A stretch of DNA of 64,000 nucleotides from the sequence record DRR378314_166; one strand, 5' to 3'. Shown here one piece after another: positions 44,792-64,000 of this stretch (position 1 is its first letter; each line of letters begins with the position of its first letter). Made by a program: the position numbers and the translations under genes. Below the pieces are notes generated by a model. That model was not told the DNA's origin, did no database searches, and saw nothing but the letters and a program-made list of their open reading frames with translations.

Positions 44792-44797
44792 TAATTC

Positions 44798-44905: not shown

Positions 44906-46090
44906 ATGAGCAGTCATTCTGTGGCGAAAATGGAATATCAGACATCTGAGGGCACATTTGAGATAGGGGCAGAGCCCTACCTGTTGACCCCGGGGCCGTT
45001 GACAACAGCCGCAACAACCAAGGCCGCCATGATGAAGGACTGGGGATCCTGGGACGATGATTTCAAAGCTGTCACCGCAGAGATCCGGAGCCGACTGATT
45101 GCCATGTGCGGCGGTGAAGATGAGTATGATTGCGTTCCCATGCAGGGCAGCGGTACTTTTTCTGTAGAAGCTGCCGTTGCATCTTTTATTCCCAAAGAGG
45201 GAAAAGCACTGGTTCTGATGAACGGTGCTTATGGTGCCCGCGCGTCTAAAATACTGAATTATATTGGTCGGGATTACATAACCCTGGACAAAGGGGACTA
45301 TCTGCCACCGATGCCCGAAGAGGTCGCGGTTATTCTGGCAGATAATCCTGATGTAACTCATGTCGTGGCAATCCACTGCGAGACCAGTTCCGGAATTCTC
45401 AATCCGTTGAAAGGCATTTCCGATGTCGTCGCGGCGGCAGGGCGGAAACTAATCGTCGATAGCATGAGCGCTTTTGGCGCTTTGCCCGTCGAGGTTTCTG
45501 AAATCCCATTTGAAGCGCTTGTTTCATCCGCGAATAAATGTATTGAGGGTGTGCCGGGCTTTGGATTTGTGTTGGCCAAAAAATCAGCATTAGAGGCGGC
45601 CAATGGAAATAGTCACTCGCTTAGTCTAGACCTTCATGATCAGTGGTCATATATGAACACCACCGGGCAGTGGCGCTTTACGCCGCCAACCCACACAGTC
45701 GTCGCTTTCTTGGAAGCGCTTCGCTTGCATGAAGCCGAGGGGGGCGTTCCCGGCCGGAATGCGCGTTATTTTTCAAATAGAGATATTTTAGTTTCAGGTA
45801 TGCGTCGTATGGGTTTCGAAACTCTCTTGGAAGATGAGTGGTTATCGCCTATTATCACAACATTCTTTAGTCCGCGTGATCAAAATTTCGAATTCAACCG
45901 ATTTTACCAAGAGATCAAATCACGTGGGTTCATCATATACCCTGGCAAACTGACAGTCGCGGACAGCTTTCGTGTAGGGTGCATCGGTGCATTGGACGCA
46001 ACAGTGATGAAAGGTGTCCTCAAGGCCGTTGAAGAAAGCTGCGCAGTGATGGGAGTAACCGAATTTGGGCCTCCCGATGGAGTGAAATAG
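44906..46090 (+). CDS. phnW: 2-aminoethylphosphonate:pyruvate transaminase
   Basis: YLLTPGPLTT, DWGSWD, QGSGT, HCET.SGILNPL, SSANKCIEG.PG, QWRFTPPT and IYPGK motifs. Start ATG 44906. Confidence 0.96.
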   Translation: MSSHSVAKMEYQTSEGTFEIGAEPYLLTPGPLTTAATTKAAMMKDWGSWDDDFKAVTAEIRSRLIAMCGGEDEYDCVPMQGSGTFSVEAAVASFIPKEGKALVLMNGAYGARASKILNYIGRDYITLDKGDYLPPMPEEVAVILADNPDVTHVVAIHCETSSGILNPLKGISDVVAAAGRKLIVDSMSAFGALPVEVSEIPFEALVSSANKCIEGVPGFGFVLAKKSALEAANGNSHSLSLDLHDQWSYMNTTGQWRFTPPTHTVVAFLEALRLHEAEGGVPGRNARYFSNRDILVSGMRRMGFETLLEDEWLSPIITTFFSPRDQNFEFNRFYQEIKSRGFIIYPGKLTVADSFRVGCIGALDATVMKGVLKAVEESCAVMGVTEFGPPDGVK

Positions 46091-46097
46091 AACTAAA

Positions 46098-47804
46098 TTG
46101 CATGCAACAACAGTATTAATAAGTTTGTTTGGTGGCGTGGCCCTGCTTTTATGGGGCTTGCGGATGGTCAATACCGGCGTCACCCGGGCTTACGGACGAG
46201 AGCTTGGAAAAATTCTCAACTTCAGCCTGAAGAACCGGTTTAATTCGTTTTTTGGGGGCCTTGGGGTCACCATGTTGTTGCAAAGCAGTACTGCAACGGC
46301 GCTTTTGACAGCGTCATTTGCCGGCCGGGGGTTGGTGACCGCTTCTGCCGGTATCGCTGTTATGCTGGGAGCGGATGTAGGGACAACCCTCGTCGCTCAA
46401 ATTCTAAGCTTCGATCTTTCCTGGTTAGCCCCCGTTCTGTTGTTCCTGGGCTTCATCCGGCATTCTACCGCAAAATCCACACGGGCGAAAAATATGGGCC
46501 GGATCATGCTTGGTCTGGGAATGATGCTGACAGCCTTAAAACTACTGGTAGCGGCATCTGAGCCAATTCGCGATTCCGCTGTGGCCCAGTTTATTTTCAG
46601 CTCCCTAAGCGGGGAGCCGGTCATGACGGTTTTGATCGGTGGATTGCTCACCTTTGTTGCGCATTCCAGCTTGGCGACAGTTTTATTTATCCTCACCTTG
46701 GTGAAAACCGGCGGTATTCCGATGGATGTGGCTTTTGCCATGATCCTTGGGGCAAATTTGGGCGGCGCTCTTCCGCCGATATTGGCGACGTTGAATGCGG
46801 ATGCCGCATCGCGGCGCCCTCCGCTTGGGAATCTGATCTGCCGGCTCACTGCAGTGATTATGGTTCTGCCTTTTCTGGCATTGGTACAGGAAGAGGTTGC
46901 CCGGCTGAGCCCTGATATCACTCGTCAGGTGGTCAATTTTCATACCTTTTTTAATCTGGGGCTGGCAGCTTTCTTCATATTGCTGACGGGTCCGTTGGGG
47001 CGCCTAACAGAGTTGCTGGCACCAGAACGTTCGATTTCAGACAATAATGCACCCGCACCTATTCATCTGGATCGTGCCGCCCTCGAAAGCCCGCAATTGG
47101 CGATTGCCAATGCCACCCGCGATACGTTACGGCTTGGGGATGTGGTGGAACAAATGTTTCGCAACTATCAGGTGGCTTTCGAGAAAAATGATCCTCAGCT
47201 TTTGGAAAAGGTGCGCGAAGCAGACGAGAGCATCAAGGATTTTAACGCTGGAATTAAAAGCTACCTAACAGAGCTTGGCCGCGAAAGCCTGGAAGAAGAA
47301 GATGAAGCCAGGTGTACGGAAATCATGACGTTCACGACCAATATGGAAAATATTGGGAATATTGTGGTGCTGAACATGTCAGAGCTTTTGGAACGAAGTC
47401 AGGTAGATCAGGTTGTTTTTTCCAAGGAAGATATCGATGATCACCGCAAATTATTCGAAATGCTCCTCGCCAATCTGAAACTTTCCTTTACGGTTTTTCT
47501 AACGCAGGAAGTCAAACAGGCAAATACATTGCTTTCCGGAAAGCAGGCACTGCGTGCGCAGGAACAAAATGCGGTGAATTCCCATCTCCGCCGATTGCGT
47601 TTGGGGCCGGGCATGGATGAAATGTCCAGTGGGTTGCATCTGGGCCTTCTGAGTGATTTGCGCCGGATCAATTCGATGATTACCGTTGTTGCCTACCCTG
47701 TACTGGCAAGAGAAGAGCAGAAAAAGAAGTCAACATTTCAAAAAAGTGAAATGAAAAAGAAAGATAAATCGAAGAAAAAGTTAAAACCGGATCATAGATT
47801 TTGA
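46098..47804 (+). CDS. Na+/Pi cotransporter family protein with PhoU-like domain (YjbB type)
   Basis: LLQSSTAT, MLGADVGT, HSS.A, LGANLG and N.HT.FN motifs, then a PhoU-like helical C-terminus. TTG start 7 bp after phnW. Confidence 0.9.
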   Translation: MHATTVLISLFGGVALLLWGLRMVNTGVTRAYGRELGKILNFSLKNRFNSFFGGLGVTMLLQSSTATALLTASFAGRGLVTASAGIAVMLGADVGTTLVAQILSFDLSWLAPVLLFLGFIRHSTAKSTRAKNMGRIMLGLGMMLTALKLLVAASEPIRDSAVAQFIFSSLSGEPVMTVLIGGLLTFVAHSSLATVLFILTLVKTGGIPMDVAFAMILGANLGGALPPILATLNADAASRRPPLGNLICRLTAVIMVLPFLALVQEEVARLSPDITRQVVNFHTFFNLGLAAFFILLTGPLGRLTELLAPERSISDNNAPAPIHLDRAALESPQLAIANATRDTLRLGDVVEQMFRNYQVAFEKNDPQLLEKVREADESIKDFNAGIKSYLTELGRESLEEEDEARCTEIMTFTTNMENIGNIVVLNMSELLERSQVDQVVFSKEDIDDHRKLFEMLLANLKLSFTVFLTQEVKQANTLLSGKQALRAQEQNAVNSHLRRLRLGPGMDEMSSGLHLGLLSDLRRINSMITVVAYPVLAREEQKKKSTFQKSEMKKKDKSKKKLKPDHRF

Positions 47805-47813
47805 GGCAGGGGG

Positions 47814-48683
47814 ATGAGCTCTAGCGAGTTAGAGATTCAGTCTTTAACGATTGGATATGCAGGGCAACTATTGGCTCTGTCCCGGTCATTGGAGTGGGAT
47901 TTCACCCTGAAATACTGGCAGGTTCTGTTGAGCACCGGGGAGGTTATCGGGTGCCTTTCAGGTGACGGTAAGCTCATTGGGACAGCCTCTTTCATTCGAT
48001 ATTCAGACACACATTGCTTTATCGGGGCGGTAATCGTTGCACAGTCCATGCAAGGACAGGGTGTTGGTAAGCTATTGATGTCAGAACTGAATCGCCGCAT
48101 AGGCAAATTCAATTTACCAGCAAAACTGATATCAACCGAAGAAGGGTTCCCGTTATATCAAAAGCTGGGTTTTGAGACGGTCGATTATTGCACTAAAATG
48201 GTGTGCGCCGCGAATATAGAGAAACCGGCACTGCCCGATTTGGCAGGGGTGACGATCAAACCTTTGAGCGGGGCATGCATGCCGAAGCTTCTGGAGTTTG
48301 ATGCAGCTTGTTTTCAGGCGGATCGAACACATGTCTTGAGTGCCTTGGTGCAGGCCGGGTATGCGGGGATCATGGCAGTGGATCGTCAAACCGACCAGAC
48401 CTTAGGTTTTGCCATAATGATTGATCGCGGTGAGCATCTCTGCATTGGTCCGGTGGTGGCAAAGACAGAGGCGTTGGCTTTGGCGCTTGTGCAGGTGATG
48501 ATCTACGGACAAACCAGATCCGTCCGGGTGGATAGCCTGTCTGATAAGGTATCTTTTCGACGCGAGCTAAAGCGTTTGGGGTTTGATGAGGAGGCAACCT
48601 CACCTCTGATGATGCGGGGCGGTGGCCCCCCGCATCGATCTGCAGAAACTGTCTTTGGGATTGTGACCCAGGCGATCGGTTAA
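47814..48683 (+). CDS. tandem GNAT N-acetyltransferase (YitH-like)
   Basis: Acetyl-CoA motif QGQGVGK.L, G.PLYQKLGF, and a second domain with D...F..DR and IGPVVA. Confidence 0.85.
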   Translation: MSSSELEIQSLTIGYAGQLLALSRSLEWDFTLKYWQVLLSTGEVIGCLSGDGKLIGTASFIRYSDTHCFIGAVIVAQSMQGQGVGKLLMSELNRRIGKFNLPAKLISTEEGFPLYQKLGFETVDYCTKMVCAANIEKPALPDLAGVTIKPLSGACMPKLLEFDAACFQADRTHVLSALVQAGYAGIMAVDRQTDQTLGFAIMIDRGEHLCIGPVVAKTEALALALVQVMIYGQTRSVRVDSLSDKVSFRRELKRLGFDEEATSPLMMRGGGPPHRSAETVFGIVTQAIG

Positions 48684-50364: not shown

Positions 50365-50380
50365 TTTGTATACATACAAA
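50365..50380. promoter_or_regulatory. palindromic operator upstream of the nicotinate operon (GntR/FCD-like)
   Basis: TTTGTAT-AC-ATACAAA 10 bp before the ATG, just downstream of a TTGACT(50335)...CATCAT promoter-like element. Confidence 0.6.
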
Positions 50381-50390: not shown

Positions 50391-51239
50391 ATGGGGGACT
50401 ATATCCGGCCAACAGAGCTTGAGGAGGCTTTATCAACCTTGTCTAAAGGAGGATGGACGATACTCGCCGGTGGTACAGATTATTATCCTGCAAAAGTTGG
50501 CTTGAAATTAAACGAAAACCTCCTGGATTTGACTGCCATTGAAGGGTTAAGGGGTATCCAGAAGCGGCAGGACGGTTGGTTTATTGGTGCAACAACCACC
50601 TGGACGGATATAGTTCGGTGTGATCTTCCGCCGTGTTTTGACGGGTTGAAAGCCACCGCTAAAGAGGTTGGCGGCGTTCAGATTCAAAACCGGGGAACGG
50701 TTGGCGGGAATATCTGCAATGCGTCCCCCGCAGCGGATGGGGGCGCGGCTTTAGTTGCCTTAAATGCAGATGTGGAAATTATGGGGCCACGTGGCCTCAG
50801 ACAAATTCCCTTAACAGAATTTGTGCGGGGAAATCGGGAAACGACCCTAGGCGAAGGTGAGCTTGTAAAAGGCTTTTGGATCCCCGTCCTTAACTCCGAT
50901 CAGACGGCCAGCTCATTCCTCAAATTAGGTTCGCGAAAATATCTTGTTATCTCGCTCGTTATGGTCTCAGGGGTTGTCGGCTGGTCATCAGAGGGAATAA
51001 TTACGGAACTGCGGATCGGGCTCGGCGCCTGTTCTCCCGTTGCTAAACGGCTCTTTCAACTGGAAAAATCGCTCATCGGGTGCCAACTGGATAACAGCTT
51101 GCACGAGCGGGTAGAAGATCATCATTTTGGGGATTTGAACCCGATTGATGATGTGCGGGCGTCGGCAAGTTACCGCCGGGAGGCGTCTAAGACTTTGGTA
51201 AAACGGCTGCTTGCCAACTGGGGGCAGGAATATGGTTGA
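50391..51239 (+). CDS. FAD-binding subunit of a xanthine-dehydrogenase-family Mo-hydroxylase (nicotinate dehydrogenase type)
   Basis: AGGTD, VGG.QIQNRGT.GGN.CNASPAADG, F.KLG.R.YLVIS and PIDDVRA...YR motifs. Start ATG 50391. Confidence 0.9.
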   Translation: MGDYIRPTELEEALSTLSKGGWTILAGGTDYYPAKVGLKLNENLLDLTAIEGLRGIQKRQDGWFIGATTTWTDIVRCDLPPCFDGLKATAKEVGGVQIQNRGTVGGNICNASPAADGGAALVALNADVEIMGPRGLRQIPLTEFVRGNRETTLGEGELVKGFWIPVLNSDQTASSFLKLGSRKYLVISLVMVSGVVGWSSEGIITELRIGLGACSPVAKRLFQLEKSLIGCQLDNSLHERVEDHHFGDLNPIDDVRASASYRREASKTLVKRLLANWGQEYG

Positions 51240-53976
51240 AACCCTCTCCTTTACCGTTAATGGTCAATCTGTTTCTATTGAAGCCAATGGCAGTGATCGG
51301 CTATCGGATGTTCTTCGAAATCAGTTGTCACTGACCGGCACAAAAGTCGGCTGTAATGCCGGTGACTGCGGTGCCTGCACGGTGTTGGTGGAAGGGGAGC
51401 AGGTCTGTTCCTGTCTAACGCCTGTTGGACAGGTGGCTTACAAACATATTGAGACTGTTGAAGGAATGGCCAAGAATGGCTCGCTTGATCAGTTGCAACG
51501 CGCTTTCAAAGAACAGGGTGCTGTCCAATGCGGGATCTGCACACCAGGGATGTTGATGGCAGCATCCACTCTGACCCGAAATGAATCTCGCCCATCCCGC
51601 AAGGAAATCGAAGATGTCATCGGGGGGGTTTTATGCCGCTGCACGGGATATCAAAAAGTGGTGGAGGCGGTCCTGTCTCTGACCGAAGAAAAGCGAGTTA
51701 AGGATCAACCCGCAGATCAAGGTTCCGTTGGCCGATCGCTACAGAAAGTAGATGCAGATCCAAAACTGACCGGGCAGGAAAAATATGGTGCAGATAACAT
51801 CCCGCCTGATGCACTTTGGGTGCGGATTATACGTTCCCCCCATGCAAATGCGCGGGTTCTGATCGGAGATTTCAGCGGGCTGATTTCTGAAACGGCAGGG
51901 TTGGAAGATATTCTGCAGCACCATGATATCCCGTTTAACCGGTTTGGGATTTATCCAGTCGGTAAAGATCAACCAGTCCTGAGTGAGGGGCGCGTTCGAT
52001 ATCGCGGCGATGCAGTAGTCGCTCTGGTTGGAGAGAAAGAGGTCGTTGCCGGATTTTCCTTGGCCGATTTACCGATCGAATTTGAAATTTTGTCCCCAAT
52101 TGAAACGCTGGATCAGGCGAGGGAGGCGACAGCTCCCCAGATTCACGATGGCAAAGTCGGAAATGTTCTGATTGAGGGAACCGTTCACAAGGGAAGCCCA
52201 GGAAAAATTGCCGAGACATCTTCGATCACGGCAACAGGGGAGTTTACAACACGGTTCGTCGAGCATGCCTATATAGAGCCAGAGGCCGGATGGGCCCGAA
52301 TGGTCGAAGGGCGGGTTGAAATGCATGTCTCCACTCAGGCCGTTCATATGGACCGGGACGAGATTGCGAATGTTCTTCAATTGGAAAAAGAACAGGTACG
52401 GGTCATCCCGACCGCATGCGGGGGTGGTTTTGGTGGGAAGCTGGATGTAGCTGTTCAACCTATTTTGGCGGTTGCTGCAACCCGGTATAACAGGTCCGTC
52501 GCTTGTGTTTTTGAGCGGCCGGAAAGCATGATGGCGAGCACGAAGCGGCATCCGTCAGAAATCAGCTGCCGCTTTACATCTGATACTAAAGGTTTGCTGC
52601 AATCTGTTGAAATGACAGCAGATTTTAATACCGGTGCTTATGCCTCCTGGGGGCCAACAGTGGCAGGACGGGTGCCCGTTCATGGGAGCGGACCGTATTT
52701 TGTCCCGAATGTTAAAATAACCGGGCGGGGGATTTATACCAATGGCCCGCCCGCCGGTGCGTTTCGGGGGTTCGGCGTGCCACAAGCCGCTATCGCCCAT
52801 GAGTGCATGATGGATGATCTGGCAGAAAAACTGAACCTGGATCGGCTGGAAATTCGCCTGAGAAACGCAATCAAAGCTGGTCAGGAAACAGCTACCGCAC
52901 AGAAACTGGAGGCGAGCGCTGGCATGTCGGCTTGTCTTGAAGCTTTGAAAGGACCCTGGGATACGCTTCAGACGGAAGCCAACAGGTTCAATCGTCTCTC
53001 AGATGGGTCCCGTCGGCAAGGGGTCGGTATTGGTGCCATGTGGTACGGTATCGGCAATACATCCTTATCCAATCCTTCAACTCTGGAAGTTGGTATTGAC
53101 CCTGACGGTAAACTCACCCTCTTCAATGGTGCCGTTGATATTGGTCAGGGGTCTAATACCATTTTGATCCAGATTTGCGCAGATGCTCTCGGTCTTCCGG
53201 CAAGTCAGTTTTCTTATGTGATGGGGGACAGCGACCTTACCCAAGATGCCGGAAAAACATCTGCCTCTCGTCAGACTTTTGTCTCTGGAAAGGCTGCAGA
53301 ACTAGCCGGGTTGGATCTTCGCCACGCCATCCTCCGGCATTTAAATGCGGGCGTAGAAGCGACATTTCGGCTTCAAGATCAGTATTTATTTGTGACGGAC
53401 GGCGGCATTACCCATCAGATTGATTTGAAGAATTTGAAACAGGGTCCGAAAGGTCAGGTGTTTCTTGGCAGTGGATCTTTTGATCCACCAACCAGCCCGC
53501 TGGATAAGAATGGCCAAGGCGTGCCTTATGCGACTTATGGCTTTGCGGCGCAAATCGCATTGGTGGAAGTTGATGTTGAATTAGGCCAATCATTTGTGCG
53601 TAAAATTATTGCGGCACATGATGTTGGCAAGGCCATCAACCCCCAACTTGTTGAAGGGCAAATTCATGGCGGAATTGCACAGGGTTTAGGGCTGGCCCTG
53701 ATGGAGGAATATGTGCCTGGGAAAACGGAAAATCTGCATGATTATCTGATCCCCACAGTTGGCGATATGCCGGATATGCAAGTCCTGCTGATTGAAGATC
53801 CGGAGCCACTTGGCCCGTTCGGTGCAAAAGGCGTCGGGGAGCCGGGGCTGGTGCCAACTGCACCGGCTATATTTGGTGCAATTCGGAATGCAACCGGGGT
53901 TCGCATTACAGAAGCACCCATGTTGCCCCATCGCTTGCGCCAATTGATCCGACAGAAAGAGAGGACCATTGACTGA
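51232..53976 (+). CDS. fused 2Fe-2S/molybdopterin subunit, probable nicotinate dehydrogenase
   Basis: GC..GDCGAC, QCGICTPG and CRCTGY Fe-S motifs; EHAYIEPE, GGGFGGK, AFRGFG, GQG, TSASRQT and KGVGE Mo-domain motifs. Directly upstream of hnr. Confidence 0.85.
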   Translation: MVETLSFTVNGQSVSIEANGSDRLSDVLRNQLSLTGTKVGCNAGDCGACTVLVEGEQVCSCLTPVGQVAYKHIETVEGMAKNGSLDQLQRAFKEQGAVQCGICTPGMLMAASTLTRNESRPSRKEIEDVIGGVLCRCTGYQKVVEAVLSLTEEKRVKDQPADQGSVGRSLQKVDADPKLTGQEKYGADNIPPDALWVRIIRSPHANARVLIGDFSGLISETAGLEDILQHHDIPFNRFGIYPVGKDQPVLSEGRVRYRGDAVVALVGEKEVVAGFSLADLPIEFEILSPIETLDQAREATAPQIHDGKVGNVLIEGTVHKGSPGKIAETSSITATGEFTTRFVEHAYIEPEAGWARMVEGRVEMHVSTQAVHMDRDEIANVLQLEKEQVRVIPTACGGGFGGKLDVAVQPILAVAATRYNRSVACVFERPESMMASTKRHPSEISCRFTSDTKGLLQSVEMTADFNTGAYASWGPTVAGRVPVHGSGPYFVPNVKITGRGIYTNGPPAGAFRGFGVPQAAIAHECMMDDLAEKLNLDRLEIRLRNAIKAGQETATAQKLEASAGMSACLEALKGPWDTLQTEANRFNRLSDGSRRQGVGIGAMWYGIGNTSLSNPSTLEVGIDPDGKLTLFNGAVDIGQGSNTILIQICADALGLPASQFSYVMGDSDLTQDAGKTSASRQTFVSGKAAELAGLDLRHAILRHLNAGVEATFRLQDQYLFVTDGGITHQIDLKNLKQGPKGQVFLGSGSFDPPTSPLDKNGQGVPYATYGFAAQIALVEVDVELGQSFVRKIIAAHDVGKAINPQLVEGQIHGGIAQGLGLALMEEYVPGKTENLHDYLIPTVGDMPDMQVLLIEDPEPLGPFGAKGVGEPGLVPTAPAIFGAIRNATGVRITEAPMLPHRLRQLIRQKERTID

Positions 53977-55387
53977 CCCTCACACCGATCCGGATATTGT
54001 TCGCTGCGATGCCTGCCCTGTTTTGTGCCGCATTCGCAAAGGCAAGACGGGTGCCTGTGACCGGTATGGAAATGTGGCGGGTCAACTGACCCGGCTGGAC
54101 CCGCTGGTTGTGATGGAACGCGGCGGCAAAGCAACAACCCTGCCGCAATCGCGGGAACAATGGGATGGGAAATTGATGTCTTCCTCGGTCATGGTGACCG
54201 GCGTTGGATCGGGCACGACCTATCCAGATTATAAACCCGCCCCCTTTATAGTTGGGGCCAAACTCGACGGGGTCGATACGGTAACTGTTGTTTCTGAAGG
54301 GGTGTTCAGTTATTGCGGTGCTAAGGTCAAAATCGATACGGACCGGTATGTGGGTCCAGAAACCGCCCCGATCTTCGCCAAGGGGGAACAGGTTGGCCAT
54401 GTCACTACCGCAGAATATGGGAGCCAGATGCTATCCATTGGTGGGGTTCGGCATTTAACCGGCGGCTCCAAAAAAGAGGGACGGGTTACGTGTGATACCC
54501 TGCTTGCCCTTTGCAACCGTGAAGCGGTAGAGCTGTCTGTTGATGGTGGGGCAGAGTTGATCGTTGAAGCCGGTAAACCCCCTGTTGTTGATAACATCCG
54601 CGAAGAGAGAATGCGGGTGGGTTGTGGCTCTGCCACCATCGGGATTTTTGCACCGCAATGGCATGGCAAAGTGGATGAAGTGATCGTTGTGGATGATCAC
54701 ATCACCGGTGTCTTGAGTGAGCATCAAGCCGGTCAGTTTCTGGAAATGCCAGTATCGGGCATTCGGGTCCGGGGCCGACGCTCCACTCCGGGGCGGTATT
54801 TTCAGGTTGCAGATCATGGCGCTGGTTGGGGAGGGACAAATGTAACCAATCCCCTTGATATAATTGACCGGATTGATCCTCAGAAAGCCTTTGCCGGGAT
54901 GCGGCTATTGATGGTCTCGACAACTGGGCAGGATAGTGCGTGGTTTGTACTGGATGATCACCTGAACCCAATTGCAACGAAGATGCCCAGCGACATTCAG
55001 AAGGCAGTTGACCGGATTGCAGAAAATTGTGAACCGGCGCTGTGTTCAGTTCTATTTATGGCAGGTGCAGGGGGATCGTTACGGGCAGGGGTTACCGAAA
55101 ACCCGGTCCGGTTGACCCGATCGGTTAAAGAGCGTTTAACCAGTGTAACCTGCGGCGGAGCTGAAACATACATATGGCCGGGCGGCGGAATTACTTTGAT
55201 GGTGGATGTCCTGAAAATGCCAGAGAAATCGTTTGGATATGTGCCGACCCCTGCCATTGTTGCGCCTATTGAATTCACCATGACCCAGCAGGATTTTGCG
55301 GCACTTGGGGGTTATTCAGATCAGATCATTTCAGTGGATGATGTGCTGAGCCGGGAAGCCTTCCGGATTGAGAAAAGGCAGAACTGA
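53969..55387 (+). CDS. hnr: 6-hydroxynicotinate reductase
   Basis: N-terminal CDACPV.C.I..G..GACDRY, TTYPDYKPAPFIV, FSYCG.KVKIDTDR, MRVGCGSA, DDHITG and WPGGGI motifs. TTG start overlaps the previous stop. Confidence 0.82.
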   Translation: MTDPHTDPDIVRCDACPVLCRIRKGKTGACDRYGNVAGQLTRLDPLVVMERGGKATTLPQSREQWDGKLMSSSVMVTGVGSGTTYPDYKPAPFIVGAKLDGVDTVTVVSEGVFSYCGAKVKIDTDRYVGPETAPIFAKGEQVGHVTTAEYGSQMLSIGGVRHLTGGSKKEGRVTCDTLLALCNREAVELSVDGGAELIVEAGKPPVVDNIREERMRVGCGSATIGIFAPQWHGKVDEVIVVDDHITGVLSEHQAGQFLEMPVSGIRVRGRRSTPGRYFQVADHGAGWGGTNVTNPLDIIDRIDPQKAFAGMRLLMVSTTGQDSAWFVLDDHLNPIATKMPSDIQKAVDRIAENCEPALCSVLFMAGAGGSLRAGVTENPVRLTRSVKERLTSVTCGGAETYIWPGGGITLMVDVLKMPEKSFGYVPTPAIVAPIEFTMTQQDFAALGGYSDQIISVDDVLSREAFRIEKRQN

Positions 55388-55390
55388 TCC

Positions 55391-56260
55391 ATGTTTGCAC
55401 CTGCGACGGCACAATTTATGAAGGATGGACAGCGATTGCATTTGCAGCACGGCCCGTCCGATTTGATTTGTGAAGCTGTGGGCGAGCCTGATGCGGTCCG
55501 CGCCGCGTATGCTGCCGCAACAGCATTCTTCGCAACAGTCCTTGAGGGGATTGTGCTTGATCTTACAACGCTGAAACAACCGGTTTCTGGTCTACAAAAC
55601 CCTGTCAGCAGTCCGGTTAGCCAGCGAATGATCAAGCGGGCTTCTTGCTTTGCCAAGTATCGATATGTCACGCCGATGGCTGGGGTGGCTGGTGCAATTG
55701 CCGATGCCGTCTTGGCAGAAATGGCGGCTATACCAGGTCTTCAAAAAGCCTATGTGAATAACGGGGGTGACATTGCACTTTACCTGGCGGCAGGACAGAC
55801 CTTTTCAGCGGCGATCATTGATAACCAGGATCACCCGAAATGGGACGGAACGGCTCATGTTAAATCGCTTGATTGCGTGGGCGGTATTGCCACTTCGGGA
55901 TGGAAGGGACGGTCTTTTTCCTTTGGGATAGCTGACGCGGTAACTGTATTGGCGGCGGATGCGGTTACGGCGGATTTCGCAGCCACATTGATTGCAGGGG
56001 ATGTAACCGTGGAGTGCCCGCAGATTACGCGGCAAGCAGCCAAAGAGATGGATCCAGATAGCGATTTGGGGGATAGGTTGGTGACCACAGATGTAGGTCC
56101 GTTATCCCGCACCGAAAAATTTCTAGCATTGTCAGCGGGGGCAAAGACAGCCAAACTGTTTCAGTCCGCTGGACTAATTAACGGGGCTTATCTCTCCTTG
56201 CAGGGGGAGGTTCTGCAAGTCTCTCAACAGACAAGAAAAATAAGGGAGAAAGTGGCATGA
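55391..56260 (+). CDS. UPF0280 / ApbE-like protein
   Basis: L.HGP.DL, TPMA.VAGAIAD, VNNGGDIA and ATSGW.GRS.S.G.ADAVTVLA motifs. Confidence 0.87.
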   Translation: MFAPATAQFMKDGQRLHLQHGPSDLICEAVGEPDAVRAAYAAATAFFATVLEGIVLDLTTLKQPVSGLQNPVSSPVSQRMIKRASCFAKYRYVTPMAGVAGAIADAVLAEMAAIPGLQKAYVNNGGDIALYLAAGQTFSAAIIDNQDHPKWDGTAHVKSLDCVGGIATSGWKGRSFSFGIADAVTVLAADAVTADFAATLIAGDVTVECPQITRQAAKEMDPDSDLGDRLVTTDVGPLSRTEKFLALSAGAKTAKLFQSAGLINGAYLSLQGEVLQVSQQTRKIREKVA

Positions 56261-56844
56261 GTGATTTGGTAAAGGTTCGGAAAATCATCACTGAAGTCGA
56301 AGAAGTTTGGCACGAAGGGGGACCTGCCCTTCAGACTCCAATCTTGAAAGGATCCATTGCTGCCGTCGTGGAAAATCCATATGCGGGGAAATATGTTGAA
56401 GATATCACACCATTTATGGATGCGTTGAAACCGCTTGGTTTGCAGCTTGCAAACCGGCTGATTGATGCACTGGGCGGTGATGCCGCTAAAATCTGCAGCT
56501 ACGGCAAAGGGGCAATAGTCGGAGAGGATGGGGAAATGGAACATGGTGCAACCTGGCATGTCGCCGGTGGATATGCCATGCGCGAAGCCCTTGGCACAGC
56601 TCATGCCATTGTTCCTTCCAGTAAGAAGGTCTCTCATGTAGGGGGACGTTTGGATATTCCGCTTACCCATAAGGACGCTTCATATGTGCGAAGTCATTTT
56701 GACGCATTGGAAGTGGGGATTGGTGATGCCCCGCGGCGTCATGAAATTCTGTTCGCGCTGGTCATGGCAACGGGTGGACGGGTTCATGCAAGGCTTGGTG
56801 GATTGGCTGCTGAGGATATATCCGAGTTTAATGGCTTGAGATAA
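56257..56844 (+). CDS. amino-acid-synthesis family (DUF1185) protein
   Basis: EE..HEGGP, AV..NPYAG.Y, YGKGAIVG..GE.EH, RSHFD and DAP...E motifs. Confidence 0.87.
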   Translation: MSDLVKVRKIITEVEEVWHEGGPALQTPILKGSIAAVVENPYAGKYVEDITPFMDALKPLGLQLANRLIDALGGDAAKICSYGKGAIVGEDGEMEHGATWHVAGGYAMREALGTAHAIVPSSKKVSHVGGRLDIPLTHKDASYVRSHFDALEVGIGDAPRRHEILFALVMATGGRVHARLGGLAAEDISEFNGLR

Positions 56845-56875
56845 CATCGGGTTTGAGGCGTTTTTTGGGGGCGGG

Positions 56876-58924
56876 ATGACAGAAAAACTGATTGGCGTGG
56901 ATGTTGGGGGCACCTTTACAGATTTGATTTCTGTTGATCCTGGCTCCGGCGCCCTGGAAATTGCCAAAGTTCCGACCACGGTTGAAAACCAGGCTTATGG
57001 TGTTCTGGCCGCCTTGAAAGATGCGAAGGTTGATCTGGCAAGGGTTGCCGCAATCAATCATGGAACCACCACCACGACAAATGCTTTGCTGGAACGGAAA
57101 ATTGCCAAGGTGGGTTTGATTACCACCAAAGGATTCCGTGATGTTCTGGAGCTGGGGCGCCGGACCCGCCCGAAACCTTATGGACTAAAAGGCAGTTTCG
57201 CGCCCTTGATCTCTCGAAACCTCCGCCTGGAAGTTGCTGAACGAATGGATACGGATGGTAATGTCCTTATTCCGTTGGATGAGCAGGGCCTGGAAGCGGG
57301 TATCCTAGAGTTGCTTGAGGCAGGTGTTGAAAGTCTGGTCATCCACTTTTTACATTCCTATAAAAATCCTGCTCATGAACAACGGGCATTGGAGATTGCC
57401 AGAGTCCATTGGCCGAACAGCTATATTACCGCCGGACATCAGATTTTATCTGAATATCGGGAATATGAGAGAGGGACGACCGCATCGATTAATGCCGCGA
57501 TACAGCCTGTCCTGGATCGCTATATTTCGCGGCTGCAAGCCGAATTGACAGACGCAGGATTTCAGCATGATCTGCTGGTGATGCAGGGAAATGGCGGAAG
57601 CGTTGCCGCACCTATTGTTGCGGAAACGGCCGTCAACACAGTGATGTCCGGCCCTGCATCCGGCGTGATGGCCGCCGCGGCAACCGCCCGTGCCGCCGGG
57701 ATCGAAGGGGTCATTACCTATGATATGGGCGGAACGAGTTCGGATGTCGGGATCGTTCAAAACGGTGTCCCGCAGGTAACATCGGAGTTGGATCTTGAGT
57801 ATGGATTGCCAATTCATGTGCCCATGGTCGACGTTCATACAATTGGTGCTGGCGGCGGATCTATCGCCTGGATTAATGAAGCCGGGCTTTTGGAGGTTGG
57901 ACCGCAAAGCGCGGGGGCCACACCGGGACCGGTTTGCTATGGTCGCGGAGGGACGCAGCCAACCATTACAGATGCCAATCTGCTCCTCGGTCGGTTGGAT
58001 CCTGATGCACTTTTATCTGTTGAAGGTGCCACCTCCCGCGAGAGACTGGAATCTGTTTTTGAGGAAACCATCGGTAACCAATTGGGGTTGACGGCAATCG
58101 AGGTTGCGGAAGCCGTCATCCGAATTGCAAATGATAAAATGGCCGGCGCTATTCGGATGGTTAGTCTGTCCCGTGGACATGATCCACGGGATTTTGTCTT
58201 GTTTGCCTTTGGCGGGGCAGGGCCGCTTCATGGTGGGGCGTTGGCTCGGGAGCTTGGGATTCCAAGACTTTTGTTGCCGGTTCGTCCTGGAATTACAAAT
58301 GCTCTGGGATGTGTTGTCTCTGATTTGCGCCATGATTTTGTCAATACCATCAATAAACCGCTGGCAACCTTGGACGCAACAGATGTCCGATCCGTTCTTG
58401 AGGAACAGATCAAAGCCGGGCAAGAAATGATTGCGCGGGATAATATTCCGGTTAGTGAGATCAATCTGATTTTCACGGCTGATATGCAATTTCAGGGGCA
58501 GAGCCATATGCTACCGGTGACCATTAGCGGACCTGATGTCACGGTTGAGGAACTGCAAACACGGTTTGATGAAATCTACTGGTCCCGTTTCGGTGTTGAG
58601 TTGCCAGAGATCCGGGCCGTTCTGGTGAATGTACATACGGCAATTATTGGAAAGCGCGAGGGGATCTCATTTGCCGCGTTGAGATCAGATATGGCAAAAT
58701 TGACACTGTCGGAGGCTCAAATTGGCAGTCGTTCGGTATATTTTCACGGCCAATGGCTGGACACGCCGATTTATTTCCGCGACCTTCTGCCTGAAGATGC
58801 TGAATTTACAGGTCCGGCAATCGTCAATCAGTTAGATACGACAATTGTGATTGAACCGGATTGGCGTGTGACAGTTGATCCCATTGGAAATTTAAGGGTG
58901 GAGGTCGCAGATGAAGCAAATTGA
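56876..58924 (+). CDS. hydantoinase/oxoprolinase A (ATP-binding) subunit
   Basis: GVDVGGTFTD, HGTT..TNALLE, EYER, SGPA.G, DMGGTS.D, GAGGGS, SAGA.PGP.CYG.GG and FGGAG motifs. Confidence 0.93.
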   Translation: MTEKLIGVDVGGTFTDLISVDPGSGALEIAKVPTTVENQAYGVLAALKDAKVDLARVAAINHGTTTTTNALLERKIAKVGLITTKGFRDVLELGRRTRPKPYGLKGSFAPLISRNLRLEVAERMDTDGNVLIPLDEQGLEAGILELLEAGVESLVIHFLHSYKNPAHEQRALEIARVHWPNSYITAGHQILSEYREYERGTTASINAAIQPVLDRYISRLQAELTDAGFQHDLLVMQGNGGSVAAPIVAETAVNTVMSGPASGVMAAAATARAAGIEGVITYDMGGTSSDVGIVQNGVPQVTSELDLEYGLPIHVPMVDVHTIGAGGGSIAWINEAGLLEVGPQSAGATPGPVCYGRGGTQPTITDANLLLGRLDPDALLSVEGATSRERLESVFEETIGNQLGLTAIEVAEAVIRIANDKMAGAIRMVSLSRGHDPRDFVLFAFGGAGPLHGGALARELGIPRLLLPVRPGITNALGCVVSDLRHDFVNTINKPLATLDATDVRSVLEEQIKAGQEMIARDNIPVSEINLIFTADMQFQGQSHMLPVTISGPDVTVEELQTRFDEIYWSRFGVELPEIRAVLVNVHTAIIGKREGISFAALRSDMAKLTLSEAQIGSRSVYFHGQWLDTPIYFRDLLPEDAEFTGPAIVNQLDTTIVIEPDWRVTVDPIGNLRVEVADEAN

Positions 58925-60641
58925 TCCCATTACCTTGTCGGTCATCCAGAACGGTTTGATCCAGGTCTGCAATGAAATGGATTTAGCCTTCGTTCGGGCT
59001 GCTTTCAGTCCGGTGATTTCGGAGGCGCTGGACCGCTCCGACGGGATCTATGCGGCAAACAACGGGGAATTGATCGCACAGGGCGAACTGGGCCTGCCCG
59101 TCTTTGTTGGCACCATGCAGTTTTCCACCCAAGCCGTGATCGAGCGGGCGAAGGATATTAAGCCCGGCGACATCTATATTGTTAATGATCCGTATTTGGG
59201 TGGCACCCACCTGATGGATGTAAAATTTGTGAAGCCGTTTTACTACAAGGGAAAACTATGGTCCTGGCTGGCCAATACAGGGCATTGGCCAGATCTAGGT
59301 GGATCTGTTCCGGGCGGCTTTTCCGCGAATGCGACGGAGGTTGAGCAAGAAGGACTTCGCTTGCCACCTGTTAAGCTTTTTAAGGAAGGGGAACTGGATC
59401 CGGAAATTCTGTCGATTATTCTTTCCAATATTCGAATTTCCGATCAACGCATTGGAGACATAAAGGCACAGGCCGCGGCGTTGACGGTTGGGGAAAACCG
59501 ATTGACGGCCCTTTTGGATAAATATGGTGAAGAGACGGTTCGTCATGCAATTGGGGAGTTGAAAAGCCGTGCAGAAGACCAGATGCGGCTCAAGATCCGG
59601 CAAATCCCCGATGGTCGTTATCAGGGACAGTCATTTGTCGACTCTGACGGTGTTGTGGATGAGCCGTTGGAAATTAATCTGGATGTTGAGGTCAAAGGAG
59701 ATGAAATGCTTTTTGATCTATCCAGATCGAGTCCACCCTGCATGGGGCCGATGAATTCAGTGTTGGCAACAACAAAATCATCTATCTATCTGGCCATAAA
59801 GCATATTTTCCCAGAAATTCCGATTAATTCAGGAACCTTCGCACCGCTGGTCGTCAAGGATCCGGACGGTACGTTTTTATATGCCAAATATCCGCGTCCA
59901 GTCTCCGGTTGTGCCGCCGAGGTCAGTCAGCGGATCGCAGAAGCCGTTTTTAACGCCCTTGTCGATGTGATGCCAACAGAGCTTTTCGCGGCCCCGGCCG
60001 GGACTTCTGGCAATTTAGCGGTTGGCGGGTATGATCCGGAAAAAGAAAAATCCTTCGTCATGTATGTCATTTCCGGTGGCGGATATGGCGGGTATCTGGA
60101 TGGCGACGGCCTAACCAATGGATGTTCGACCATTGGAATTTCAAAAACCACACCAATTGAAGTGATGGAGCAATATTACCCGGTTTTGTTTGAAGAATAT
60201 TCATTGCATGAAGGTTCTGGTGGTGCCGGTGAATTTCGCGGGGGTTTTGGTGTGAATTATACCCTGACCCTCAAACGGGGGGAGGCGCGGGCGTCCATGG
60301 TTATGGATCATGGCCGATTTGGGCCAAAGGGTGCGCTAGGCGGCAAGGATGGGGGAACTAATAAAGTTCGTATCTTTGCCGGGGGTGAAGATTATATACC
60401 GCCGCATTTGTCCAAAGATCAGAATATTCGGATCACCGCCGGAGATAAAATTTTTATCTCGACCCCTGGCGGCGGCGGGTATGGCAATCCATATGATCGC
60501 AATCCGCAAAAAGTCGCGGAGGATGTGCAGCGCGGCTATTATACCGTTGCAGAGGCCAAGGATCTATTCAAGGTGGCTTTGCACCTGGATAGTTTATTTG
60601 TCGATGAAACTGAGACACAAGTGTTGAGAGCTGGATCTTAG
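58911..60641 (+). CDS. hydantoinase B/oxoprolinase subunit
   Basis: DPIT..VI, R.AFS..I.E..D, NDPY.GGTHL.D, H..D.GG..PG, GSGG.G..RGG.G and TPGGGGYG motifs. Overlaps the A subunit. Confidence 0.93.
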   Translation: MKQIDPITLSVIQNGLIQVCNEMDLAFVRAAFSPVISEALDRSDGIYAANNGELIAQGELGLPVFVGTMQFSTQAVIERAKDIKPGDIYIVNDPYLGGTHLMDVKFVKPFYYKGKLWSWLANTGHWPDLGGSVPGGFSANATEVEQEGLRLPPVKLFKEGELDPEILSIILSNIRISDQRIGDIKAQAAALTVGENRLTALLDKYGEETVRHAIGELKSRAEDQMRLKIRQIPDGRYQGQSFVDSDGVVDEPLEINLDVEVKGDEMLFDLSRSSPPCMGPMNSVLATTKSSIYLAIKHIFPEIPINSGTFAPLVVKDPDGTFLYAKYPRPVSGCAAEVSQRIAEAVFNALVDVMPTELFAAPAGTSGNLAVGGYDPEKEKSFVMYVISGGGYGGYLDGDGLTNGCSTIGISKTTPIEVMEQYYPVLFEEYSLHEGSGGAGEFRGGFGVNYTLTLKRGEARASMVMDHGRFGPKGALGGKDGGTNKVRIFAGGEDYIPPHLSKDQNIRITAGDKIFISTPGGGGYGNPYDRNPQKVAEDVQRGYYTVAEAKDLFKVALHLDSLFVDETETQVLRAGS

Positions 60642-61606
60642 ACCGATTTTCGAGCTTTGCGGATCCACTCAATCAGGCTGGCGATCAGTCCTTTGGGTAA
60701 TAGTACAACACTGATCATGAAAAGGATCCCAAGAATGAGGATCCAGTAATCGCCAAAGATTTCTGACAACCAGCTTTCGGTTAACCGGGTCAGGACTGCG
60801 CCCAAAAAGGCAGCAATCAAAACTTCTTTTCCGCCAATGGCAACCCAGATTAAGACTTCTGTTGAAAGTCCAAAGCCGATCAGTGTGGGGGAGGCAAAAC
60901 CATCAATAGTGACAAATAAAGCCCCGGCAAGGGCCGCGATTGCAGCGCTGAGGCAAAAAATTTGCAAGCGAATAGTGAGTGGCCGAAATCCAAAATATGG
61001 CAGACGATCCGGGTTTGTTCGTAGCGCAATCAGTTTTAAGCCGGTGTCTGATTGGGTCAGCCAGCCAAGCCCTAAGGCAATGGTGAAGACAATGCTCCAG
61101 AGTATGTAGAAAGTCGGCAGGCTATCCCAGATTTCAATCGGATCGCCAAAGAGTGCGAGATTAATTGGCGGGATATCCAGAAGGCCGTTATAGCCACCCA
61201 GAGCATACCAATTGCTCATTAACCGCTCCAGCACCATGGCGATGGCAAGCGTGATAATCGCAAGATAGGCCCCGTGAATCCCTTTGCCTGCGAATAGAAA
61301 ATATCCCAATAAGGCTGCAAAGGCGGCGCCCGCCATCATGGCCAGAACAAGGCCAAGATAAAAACTGGTGGGCAGCGGATCAAGCATGCCCTTTGTCGTC
61401 ACTGCCATGACATAGGCGCCAATTCCAAAAAAGATCGCCTGTCCCAGACATAAGATGCCGCCATAGCCCCAGGTCAGTGACAGGGACATCGCGAAGAGAC
61501 CGTAAATTAGGTAGTAGTTAAGCTGACTGGTCCAATAATCAGAGGTGACCAGTGGCAGCAACCCCATAACAGCAAAGACGATCAGGATCGGAATGTTATT
61601 TTTCAC
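60638..61606 (-). CDS. Urt/Liv-type ABC transporter permease (LivM/UrtC-like)
   Basis: WGYGG.L.LGQA.FFG.GAY, Y.AIITLA, GG.NG and WVAIGG motifs. Confidence 0.88.
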   Translation of the reverse strand: MKNNIPILIVFAVMGLLPLVTSDYWTSQLNYYLIYGLFAMSLSLTWGYGGILCLGQAIFFGIGAYVMAVTTKGMLDPLPTSFYLGLVLAMMAGAAFAALLGYFLFAGKGIHGAYLAIITLAIAMVLERLMSNWYALGGYNGLLDIPPINLALFGDPIEIWDSLPTFYILWSIVFTIALGLGWLTQSDTGLKLIALRTNPDRLPYFGFRPLTIRLQIFCLSAAIAALAGALFVTIDGFASPTLIGFGLSTEVLIWVAIGGKEVLIAAFLGAVLTRLTESWLSEIFGDYWILILGILFMISVVLLPKGLIASLIEWIRKARKSV

Positions 61607-62453
61607 TGCGGCCCCCCAGAATACCCTCAGGTCGCATGCGGATAATCAGGATTGCCAGAATGAAAACGGCAATCTGAGCCGCAACCGGCGAAATCCAGAC
61701 AGTGAGGAGACTGTTGGTGCCGCCAACTGCGGCGCCACCAACCAGAACACCCGCAAGTGGGCCAGCTCCGCCCACCAGAATGGAGAGAAATCCTGGAACC
61801 AGATATCCAAGACCCATTTGCGGATCGACGCTGATCGTCGGCGCGATCAGGGCACCAGCCAGCCCCGCCAACGCCGTTCCAATTACAAAGCTCCATCGAT
61901 ACATTCGCCTGGTATTGATGCCAAGGGTCGCTGCGGTATCGGGCCGGGCAATAACCGCCCGGGCTTTCAAGCCAAAATCAGTTTTCAAAAATAACCAGAA
62001 TGTGCCGCCGATCAGAAGCGCGGCAATTCCCATGATAATCAGCCGGTAAAGGGGATAGCTAAAGTCACCGATCGTTAAAGACGTGCTGAGCGGGGTGACA
62101 ACACTTTGGGCTTCGGGGCCAAAAGTGAGGACAATGGCCTGTTTGAGAGCAATGGACAAACCCCATGTGGCAAGGATGGTGTCCAGCGGGCGCAGATAAA
62201 TATGGCGGATGAGAAAATATTCGATGACGAAACCAATAGCCCCAACAACAAGCGGCGCCAACAGGACACCGATCCAGAAGGGCAGCCCGATTGTTTGCGC
62301 CATCACCATCACATATGCCCCCAGCATAAACAGCTCCCCATGGGCCATATTGATAACCCCCATCATGCCAAACACGATCATGAGGCCAAGAGCGATGAGA
62401 ACCAGGATAAGGATATAAGAGGTCGCATCAACCAGAGGGATGAGAATATCCAT
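61596..62453 (-). CDS. Urt/Liv-type ABC transporter permease (LivH/UrtB-like)
   Basis: ALGL..VFG.MGVINMAHGE..MLGAY, RPLDT.LATWG and G...RA motifs. Start ATG 62453. Confidence 0.9.
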   Translation of the reverse strand: MDILIPLVDATSYILILVLIALGLMIVFGMMGVINMAHGELFMLGAYVMVMAQTIGLPFWIGVLLAPLVVGAIGFVIEYFLIRHIYLRPLDTILATWGLSIALKQAIVLTFGPEAQSVVTPLSTSLTIGDFSYPLYRLIIMGIAALLIGGTFWLFLKTDFGLKARAVIARPDTAATLGINTRRMYRWSFVIGTALAGLAGALIAPTISVDPQMGLGYLVPGFLSILVGGAGPLAGVLVGGAAVGGTNSLLTVWISPVAAQIAVFILAILIIRMRPEGILGGRSEK

Positions 62454-62454
62454 T

Positions 62455-63159
62455 TCAGACTCCCAAATACCGGTGTGCAAGATCAGGGTCGGATTTGAAA
62501 GTCTGCGCAGGAACTATTTCCTTAATCTCCCCATTTTCCAAAAACTGAACTTCATCGGCCATCGCCTGCACCATTGTTATATTCTGTTCGACCATCAGAA
62601 TAGTAAGGCCCGTCTCACTGGCAATCGTTTTTAAACTTGTACCGATTTCCTGAACGATGCTGGGCTGAATCCCCTCTGTCGGTTCATCCAGAAGAAGGAT
62701 GTCGGGATCGGTCAGAAGGGCCCGGGCGATGGCAAGAATTTGTTGCTGACCGCCGGAGAAGGTGCCTGCTTTTTGGGATAATCGTTCTTTTAAAATTGGA
62801 AACCAGCCGTAAATCTGATCCAGATTTTGCAGGTTGCTCAAGTCGGAGCCGAGGGCGGCCAGGCGTAAATTGTCGGCAACTGTAAATTGCTCAAAGATTT
62901 CCCGGCCTTGCGGTACATATCCGATCCCGAGCTGTGCAATCTGATGTGTCTTGAGATGCTCCAGATGGGCACCGGCAAAAGAGATGGAGCCTTGTTGCGT
63001 GGGAAGTAGTCCCATAATTGTTTTCATCAATGTGGTTTTGCCCATGCCATTCCGGCCCATGATCGCGGTGATTTTTCCTTGTTTCACCTGTGTTGAGAGG
63101 CCTTTGAGGATCATAGCTTCACCATAACCGGAAATCAGACCCTGAACATCAAGCATCAT
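62455..63159 (-). CDS. ABC ATP-binding protein (LivF/UrtE-like)
   Basis: GRNGMGKTT, YVPQGREIF, SGGQQQ.LAIARAL and LDEPTEGIQP motifs. Start ATG 63159 with GGAGG RBS. Confidence 0.92.
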   Translation of the reverse strand: MMLDVQGLISGYGEAMILKGLSTQVKQGKITAIMGRNGMGKTTLMKTIMGLLPTQQGSISFAGAHLEHLKTHQIAQLGIGYVPQGREIFEQFTVADNLRLAALGSDLSNLQNLDQIYGWFPILKERLSQKAGTFSGGQQQILAIARALLTDPDILLLDEPTEGIQPSIVQEIGTSLKTIASETGLTILMVEQNITMVQAMADEVQFLENGEIKEIVPAQTFKSDPDLAHRYLGV

Positions 63160-63886
63160 AAGTGCCTCCTGTTCCGAAATAGAGGTCCTGGACTTCCCGG
63201 TCATTGCGGATGCTGGCAAATGATCCGGACTTTAGAACCTGCCCTTTGCTCATAACCGTTAAGGGACAATTCAACTGCTCGATAAATGAAATGTCATGCT
63301 CGATAACGATGACCGTCAAATTTTGGGTCCTGGTCAATTTCTGGATTAATCCGGCAGTTGCTTCGGTTTCACCAACGGTCATGCCGGCGGTCGGTTCATC
63401 CAGTAAAAAAAGTTGTGGGGATTGCAACAAAACCATGCCGATTTCCAGCCATTGTTTCTCCCCATGAGACAGGTGGCTGGCAACAATATCTTGTTTATGG
63501 GTTAGGTTTATCAGGTCCAGTATTTCGTCTGGATTGGTTTTTGGAAAATCAGAGGCGAGATGATGCGGGGCGAGGATGGGTATCCGAAGGTTCTGTGCGA
63601 CGGTTAAATCCAGAAAGAGGGAAGGCACCTGAAATTTTCGTCCAACCCCCAATTTGGCAATCTGCTGGGTGCTAAGGGTGGTGAGATCTGTTCCCCGTAG
63701 GCGGATTGCGCCTTCGTCAGCCGAAAATGTCCCGCTGATCAAGTTAAACAGGGTTGATTTGCCGCAGCCATTAGGTCCGATAATGGCGGTTGTACTCCCT
63801 TCGTCTATGGACAGGGAAAACTGATCAACGGCGGTTAATCCACCGAATCTTTTTGATAACGACTCTATTTCAAGAAAAGGCATCAT
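63149..63886 (-). CDS. ABC ATP-binding protein (LivG/UrtD-like)
   Basis: FGGL.AV, GPNG.GKST, RKFQ.P, LSHGEKQWLEIGM, DEP.AGM and IEHD motifs. Start probably ATG 63886. Confidence 0.92.
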   Translation of the reverse strand: MMPFLEIESLSKRFGGLTAVDQFSLSIDEGSTTAIIGPNGCGKSTLFNLISGTFSADEGAIRLRGTDLTTLSTQQIAKLGVGRKFQVPSLFLDLTVAQNLRIPILAPHHLASDFPKTNPDEILDLINLTHKQDIVASHLSHGEKQWLEIGMVLLQSPQLFLLDEPTAGMTVGETEATAGLIQKLTRTQNLTVIVIEHDISFIEQLNCPLTVMSKGQVLKSGSFASIRNDREVQDLYFGTGGTYDA

Positions 63887-63906
63887 TTTTATCAACACTG
63901 TAAGTA

Positions 63907-63934
63907 GACAAACAGAAAACAAGTCCTGTTTGTC
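63907..63934. promoter_or_regulatory. inverted repeat upstream of the ABC operon
   Basis: GACAAACAG-N10-CTGTTTGTC (perfect 9-bp arms), 20 bp upstream of the first ATPase start. Confidence 0.45.
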
Positions 63935-64000
63935 AGTACTCAAATAGTTATAATTGTTAGTGTGCAAAAAGCTTTGCCTGTTTTTTAAACAAAATCGCAA

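Follow-up and report, generated by a model that had tools for sequence, protein, structure and literature searches.

An operon of the reductive nicotinate type carrying a probable ATP-dependent HyuAB lactamase in place of enamidase

The reductive route of nicotinate catabolism is known from the fermentation of Eubacterium barkeri, which is described as starting with hydroxylation, reduction to 1,4,5,6-tetrahydro-6-oxonicotinate (THON) and hydrolytic opening of the ring (PMC9304392), and from a conserved cluster reported for Azorhizobium caulinodans ORS571, Bradyrhizobium japonicum USDA110 and Bradyrhizobiaceae SG-6C, where the Bradyrhizobiaceae homolog of the 6-hydroxynicotinate reductase Hnr is given as 42% identical to the E. 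barkeri enzyme (PMC3511419). The proteobacterial cluster has enamidase as its ring opener. Among the two-subunit ATP-dependent lactamases, CapAB of P. jessenii (6YRA) acts on caprolactam and OplAB of P. putida is reported to hydrolyse the six-membered delta-valerolactam (PMC11033972), and IaaCE of Aromatoleum is a HyuAB-type hydrolase proposed to open the N-heterocyclic lactam ring in anaerobic indoleacetate degradation (PMC8453981). Here we describe an operon within a stretch of 64,000 nucleotides from sequence record DRR378314_166 (the whole stretch being called the window), in which genes for the first two steps of the reductive route are joined to a HyuAB pair. In the literature searched, which did not cover subscription papers and supplements, we found no description of a HyuAB/oxoprolinase-type enzyme in the catabolism of nicotinate, 6-hydroxynicotinate or THON; the reductive pathway is known, and a swap of enamidase for HyuAB within it appears to be undescribed.

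The operon comprises seven plus-strand genes (50391-60641), located from the list of open reading frames and by reading each junction, and separated by overlaps or gaps of at most 31 bp throughout. The first two genes encode the FAD-binding subunit (50391..51239; PF00941, PF03450) and the fused 2x[2Fe-2S] and molybdopterin (FeS-Mo) subunit (51232..53976; PF00111, PF01799, PF01315, PF02738, PF20256) of a xanthine-dehydrogenase-family Mo hydroxylase, the putative nicotinate hydroxylase. The FAD gene starts at the ATG at 50391, with AAAGGG upstream, and overlaps the FeS-Mo gene by 8 bp; another 8-bp overlap leads to the TTG-started gene of an Hnr-like protein (53969..55387), the putative 6-hydroxynicotinate reductase. 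After a 3-bp gap follows the gene of a UPF0280 protein of ApbE-like fold (55391..56260; NF003322, 327 bits against a cutoff of 290), which overlaps by 4 bp that of a DUF1185/AA_synth protein (56257..56844; PF06684, E 4e-70). A 31-bp gap then separates the latter from hyuA (56876..58924; PF05378, PF01968, PF19278), encoding the ATP-binding subunit of a hydantoinase/oxoprolinase-family lactamase, and hyuB, encoding its metal-site (hydrolytic) subunit (58911..60641; PF02538), overlaps hyuA by 14 bp, so that the pair is translationally coupled within the operon. Comparison with the Pfam and NCBIfam profile libraries confirmed every family name of the seven genes except 'hnr', for which neither library holds a model. 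The seven tightly coupled genes proposed in the original prediction, which had been made from the sequence alone, are thereby confirmed.

A Mo hydroxylase, an Hnr ortholog, two conserved proteins whose function is unknown and a linked ABC transporter (two permeases and two ATPases, convergent) characterise a THON-route nicotinate cluster, and the window has them all; the expected third enzyme, enamidase, is missing, and hyuAB is found instead. The window Hnr is 66% identical to those of three Bradyrhizobium loci (L070, L073 and L076), and L070 holds hnr, UPF0280 and DUF1185 as well as the genes of a binding protein and its liv-type transporter; the amidohydrolase of this locus (18233-19429) matches E. 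barkeri enamidase 2VUN at E 5e-109. Since this amidohydrolase is the enamidase ortholog, the window represents the known cluster minus enamidase plus hyuAB. The hydroxylases differ as well, being a NicB-like Mo/cytochrome c enzyme in the Bradyrhizobium loci and the two-subunit FAD and FeS-Mo enzyme in the window. Compared with E. barkeri, the first three steps would be alike; the window's ring opener, however, comes from a different enzyme family and should use ATP, and the later B12-dependent steps are absent from the window. With the L070 amidohydrolase as query, tblastn found no enamidase in the 64-kb window at E<=1e-3, and no PF01979 or PF07969 match occurred among the 54 open reading frames scanned, in agreement with the predicted lack of an amidohydrolase-family gene.

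To follow the two ring openers across other bacteria, 160 loci, 80 seeded with Hnr and 80 with HyuB (72-80% HyuB identity), were surveyed by tblastn with the window proteins and the L070 enamidase, and gene co-occurrence was read from targeted tblastn plus a coarser clustering. The Hnr-seeded loci contained enamidase in 20 cases, hyuA/B at >=55% identity in 22 and neither in 38 (many of them short contigs), but never both. None of the 80 HyuB-seeded loci had enamidase; of the 51 whose upstream sequence extends to 9 kb or more, 42 contained Hnr. Enamidase and the HyuAB clade were thus found together in 0 of 160 loci. Whole genomes gave the same picture. Tblastn detected enamidase in none of 12 picked HyuAB-type genomes, which include G058 (with Hnr 86% and HyuB 90% identical to those of the window) and three Sneathiella genomes; these four and G232, the closest genomes searched, gave no match at E<=1e-5. 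As a positive control, the query found its target in all five enamidase-type genomes, where the best HyuB match was at most 41% identical. Five further genomes had neither gene at the locus: three hold enamidase elsewhere (69-77%), with HyuB at most 43% identical or absent, one has no enamidase and a HyuB at 71%, and the fifth, G013, is the ambiguous case described below.

Two taxonomic samples sharpened this complementarity. Among 301 genomes from the class of G001, Hnr was found in 44, enamidase orthologs (69-80%) in 14, 13 of them with Hnr, and HyuB at >=65% in 34, 31 of them with Hnr; the 44 Hnr genomes therefore divide into 13 with enamidase and 31 with HyuB (>=66%), none having both and none neither. 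Among 201 genomes from the order of G316, a metagenome-assembled genome of Burkholderiales, Hnr occurred in 15, with enamidase (68-73%) in six and HyuB (71-75%) in nine, again without overlap or gap. When the samples are pooled, all 59 Hnr genomes hold exactly one of the two, enamidase in 19 and HyuB in 40, and HyuB orthologs at 65-90% identity track the Hnr genomes that have no enamidase. The mutual exclusion among hnr loci that the original prediction had put forward for testing is borne out at both levels. Apparent stops inside the HyuB matches of G089, G381 and G013 were also inspected; the one that could be located was the natural stop read through near the C-terminus, the other two alignments contained no stop, and no broken gene or recoding was seen.

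The two ring openers have also replaced each other repeatedly. A FastTree phylogeny of 116 Hnr sequences, 81 rows of which were labelled enamidase or HyuAB, requires at least six changes between the two among the labelled rows. One case is the sister pair L007 (enamidase) and L018 (HyuAB), joined on the Hnr tree with support 100 and syntenic over the KOR-like oxidoreductase (90% identical), FAD subunit (75%), FeS-Mo subunit (81%), two DUF1185 proteins (85% for the first, 84% for the second) and, between these, an additional Mo large subunit (81%). Beyond the later of the two DUF1185 genes, L007 continues with enamidase and L018 with hyuA-hyuB, a plain exchange to which no enzyme is added. Exclusivity, the repeated switches and this same-position swap together support the reading that HyuAB stands in place of enamidase. 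The compact order seen in the window is no chance arrangement either, because the seven genes together with the convergent liv-type transporter recur in nine Sneathiella-like loci (L081, L084-L090 and L114); outside Sneathiella the usual order is hnr, UPF0280, sometimes DUF1185, binding protein, liv transporter, hyuA and hyuB.

HyuA contains the hydantoinase/oxoprolinase domains PF05378 (E 2e-51), PF01968 (E 3e-90) and PF19278 (E 2e-11), and its translation holds DVGGTFTD (phosphate 1), DMGGT (phosphate 2) and GATPGP (adenosine), matching the ASKHA ATP motifs DxGGTxTD, DxGGT and GxxPGP that are described for CapA (PMC8453981). HyuB matches PF02538 over its full length (E 2e-159) and aligns with CapB (6YRA_B) at E 1e-83, all four metal-ligand positions being identical. 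These are D41, H100, D103 and H125 in window numbering and D41, H99, D101 and H124 in that of the CapB paper, which reports that their mutation inactivates CapB; the third ligand is D102 when counted in the PDB chain 6YRA_B. The best solved relatives of the pair are N-methylhydantoinase 7HK5 and caprolactamase 6YRA, HyuA giving 7HK5 and 6YRA_A as its best PDB matches. By its intact ATP motifs and metal ligands HyuAB would be a competent ATP-dependent lactamase. It shares with CapAB and OplAB the two-subunit architecture, and hydrolysis of a six-membered lactam, as reported for OplAB, resembles the role proposed here. Yet the pair is not an equivalog of caprolactamase, scoring 506.8 and 346 bits against cutoffs of 1000 for NF050156 and NF050157, and both the genomic context and the presumed substrate, a carboxylated cyclic enamide, differ. 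IaaCE, likened here by its published description, is said to act on 2-oxoindoleacetate in a different pathway (PMC8453981).

The upstream enzymes are common to both variants. Orthologs of the FAD subunit (43-59% identical) precede hnr in enamidase-type and HyuAB-type loci alike, and the FeS-Mo subunit is kept adjoining hnr at 48-72% identity. Every NCBIfam equivalog score of the Mo hydroxylase lies below its cutoff. The Hnr-like protein has no sequence match in Pfam, NCBIfam or the PDB, but a database sequence search returned at least 8000 relatives. Among the 120 matches listed, 12 are named 6-hydroxynicotinate reductase at NCBI and the others are unnamed or 'hypothetical protein', and the closest is from Sneathiella limimaris, at 86% identity. 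Conservation mapping showed an invariant GCGSAT and a four-cysteine motif, CxxCxxxC...C, at the N-terminus. In some marine loci DUF1185 occurs twice within the cluster, and so does the Mo large subunit, whose second version has about 780 aa and shares 27% identity with the first (L007 13245-16336; L018 13144-16241). A two-subunit 2-oxoacid:ferredoxin oxidoreductase adjoins the cluster in eight loci, six of HyuAB and two of enamidase type (L018 3229-6159 on the minus strand, L007, L001, L002, L032, L053, L136 and L146), and might supply Hnr with reduced ferredoxin.

The UPF0280 protein tests as ApbE-like in fold. Its AlphaFold model (pLDDT 91.8) retrieved in Foldseek the DUF375 structure 2O34 first (E 7e-9) and next the ApbE/Ftp/FmnB flavin transferases (E 1e-4 to 4e-2), namely FmnB 7ESC, ApbE 5MGY, 1VRM and 6NXJ, and Ftp 4IFU, with probabilities of 0.98-1.00 and TM scores of 0.38-0.54. 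By sequence it falls outside the Pfam ApbE family, matching no Pfam family at E<=0.001. The modelled fold and the GCGSAT and four-cysteine motifs of Hnr make UPF0280 a candidate flavin transferase that may mature the adjacent Hnr. E. barkeri Hnr reportedly carries a covalently bound flavin; the maturation role of UPF0280 is offered as a lead only. DUF1185 matched PDB 3BYQ at E 2e-60, and its model (pLDDT 86.6) found structures of the DUF1185 family only, so a role as a RidA-like enamine deaminase was rejected. Counting loci with enough flank, 18 of 19 loci of enamidase type contain DUF1185, as do 38 of 56 of HyuAB type.

We consider it probable that the operon encodes the reductive THON route with enamidase replaced by an ATP-dependent HyuAB. 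The Mo hydroxylase would convert nicotinate to 6-hydroxynicotinate, which Hnr would reduce to THON. HyuA, as an ASKHA-type ATPase, would then activate the lactam carbonyl, either by direct phosphorylation or via carboxyphosphate, and the activated C6-N1 bond would be hydrolysed at the metal site of HyuB. Loss of ammonia from the enamine so formed, 2-(aminomethylidene)glutarate, would give 2-formylglutarate, and such a self-deaminating product fits the finding that no aminotransferase or extra reductase is conserved with Hnr-linked hyuAB among the loci surveyed. Because Hnr is retained in the HyuAB clusters, HyuAB should act after the reduction step, and on the same ground the pyridone 6-hydroxynicotinate was rejected as its direct substrate. 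Both variants share the upstream enzymes, a MarR regulator type and the transporter's binding protein, whose identity across the two locus types is 61-65%; this argues for the same substrate in both. With somewhat more belief than doubt we extend this to the proposal that the HyuAB clade is an ATP-dependent THON ('enamide') lactamase and a commoner proteobacterial ring opener than enamidase (40 of the 59 sampled Hnr genomes), accompanied by UPF0280 as a dedicated ApbE-like flavin transferase maturing Hnr at GCGSAT.

HyuAB might instead open a derivative of THON, for example the saturated 6-oxopiperidine-3-carboxylate formed by further reduction. This would explain the need for ATP, since a saturated delta-lactam is chemically stable, and the characterised relatives do act on saturated lactams, caprolactam and valerolactam; moreover, the nearest HyuAB paralog clade (HyuA 52%, HyuB 58-61%, no Hnr) lies beside a class-III aminotransferase and BKACE in one of the three contexts read (L174), the layout expected for conversion of a saturated lactam to an amino acid. 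Hnr-linked hyuAB, however, has no conserved extra reductase or aminotransferase, which favours THON itself over a derivative; the aminotransferases of the window, two in number, form part of a separate block and are met again in only one of 160 loci, at 31% identity, and the L007/L018 exchange adds no enzyme. We therefore regard a derivative as unlikely, though worth keeping in view. Quite unlikely, too, is a cluster whose substrate, in either variant, would be some pyridine or N-heterocyclic acid and not nicotinate, the nicotinate label having been inherited from annotation. The sub-cutoff equivalog scores of the Mo hydroxylase, the missing curated model for Hnr and the second Mo large subunit of some loci would suit such a substrate, but the enamidase-type cluster is that of Azorhizobium caulinodans and Bradyrhizobiaceae, in which it was mapped and for which biochemical or growth evidence of the THON route is reported (PMC3511419), the enamidase ortholog matches that of E. 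barkeri, and nicotinamidase-like isochorismatase genes adjoin six loci. As to whether HyuAB is a mere passenger, a housekeeping or unrelated enzyme of, for example, 5-oxoproline or hydantoin use, while some unknown enzyme, DUF1185 for instance, opens THON, the promiscuous annotation of the family and the lack of a known function for DUF1185 leave some room. A passenger is not expected to complement enamidase so strictly, in all 59 of the Hnr genomes, DUF1185 accompanies enamidase in nearly all its loci and is missing from 18 of 56 HyuAB loci, and within the operon the translation of hyuA is coupled to that of hyuB, so that we hold this explanation to be very improbable.

Several observations weigh against HyuAB as the THON-opening enzyme, or limit how far the comparison carries. 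The HyuB proteins of G157 and G307 are 66% identical to that of the window, yet these genomes have no Hnr, and the pairs lie in operons of MarR, Mo large subunit, HyuA, HyuB and BKACE or PLP-decarboxylase (L175 8060-15718; L176 4186-11641); close relatives thus act on another lactam, and homology alone leaves the substrate unfixed. A third apparent Hnr-less exception, G262, proved to be a cluster cut by the contig end. G013, a picked genome with Hnr, lacks enamidase, its HyuB-like gene reaches no more than 59% identity, and the genome is ambiguous. In five HyuAB-type genomes (G238, G065, G184, G087 and G520), contigs other than that of the cluster carry a distant paralog resembling enamidase (37-43% identity); in the three contexts read, it lies in other N-heterocycle-like clusters and not beside hnr. 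The 59 Hnr genomes are not independent, relatedness inflates their raw counts, and the samples come without completeness figures. An enamidase elsewhere in the window's own organism is excluded only through relatives, and the whole reading has a comparative-genomic basis.

Two of these related clades have gene neighbourhoods of their own. In L174 (642-11971), a fused HyuA-HyuB protein of 1253 aa and a second, split pair stand beside a binding protein, a class-III aminotransferase and BKACE, which looks like a route from lactam to amino acid to beta-keto acid. The distant enamidase-like clade (40-43%; L169 6016-7209, L170 3632-4825 on the minus strand, L171 5998-7191) occurs in two types of context, one with a TAXI/TRAP transporter, MarR, an HpaB-like monooxygenase and a 3-hydroxyisobutyrate-dehydrogenase-like gene, and the other with two Mo hydroxylases, an SDR, an isochorismatase and an MFS transporter; these clusters are candidate pathways for other N-heterocycles.

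Upstream of the operon, 12 bp before the first start codon, lies the palindrome TTGTATACATACAA (50366..50379; no strand assigned), an operator-like site with one match in the window against 0.09 expected. The pattern TGTAT-NN-ATACA is found just 5' of the FAD gene in six of 65 loci, against a background of 0.0025 per 280 bp: L007 of enamidase type (3193-3206), and L018 (6350-6365), L081, L084, L085 and L089 of HyuAB type. In marine lineages the palindrome before the first gene is common to both variants. A MarR regulator is found in 35 loci (12 with enamidase, 11 with HyuAB, 12 with neither), but among the loci surveyed none occurs in the window or the Sneathiella-like loci. In the lineages carrying the TGTAT-NN-ATACA palindrome, no MarR or other regulator gene adjoins the cluster.

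At the other end of the operon, the genes of a liv-type ABC transporter, two permeases and two ATPases (60638..64000, minus strand; PF02653 twice, PF00005 twice), run convergently, the last one off the window, and the gene of the corresponding binding protein lies outside it. The stop codon of hyuB overlaps that of the convergent permease gene (60638-60641), so that a terminator would find no space between these operons. The transporter is kept in the same position in the Sneathiella-like loci (53-84%), whereas other lineages have a transporter of this type inserted between DUF1185 and hyuA; it is a probable nicotinate importer. The remaining genes of the window serve housekeeping and unrelated transport. 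A separate block (39467-48683) comprises a divergent LysR gene, followed by a binding protein, an ABC ATPase, a permease, class-III and class-V aminotransferases, an Na/Pi cotransporter and a GNAT protein, and is unlinked to the nicotinate cluster elsewhere. Its aminotransferases (43310-46090) were considered as pathway members and rejected, as they belong to this LysR/ABC block and one of them recurs in a single locus of the 160 (L105, 31% identity).

If HyuAB does open THON, pyridine catabolism would gain its first ring cleavage driven by ATP, and a carboxylated six-membered cyclic enamide would join the few substrates listed for ATP-dependent lactamases, enzymes that are of interest for mild lactam hydrolysis. 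The natural swaps between enamidase and hyuAB provide a ready-made complementation system. The textbook third step of the reductive route would then be valid for about one third of the sampled proteobacterial carriers, the majority form spending ATP, and the annotation 'hydantoinase/oxoprolinase' would hide the ring-opening step whenever metabolic reconstructions cover the turnover of vitamin B3 by soil and marine bacteria.

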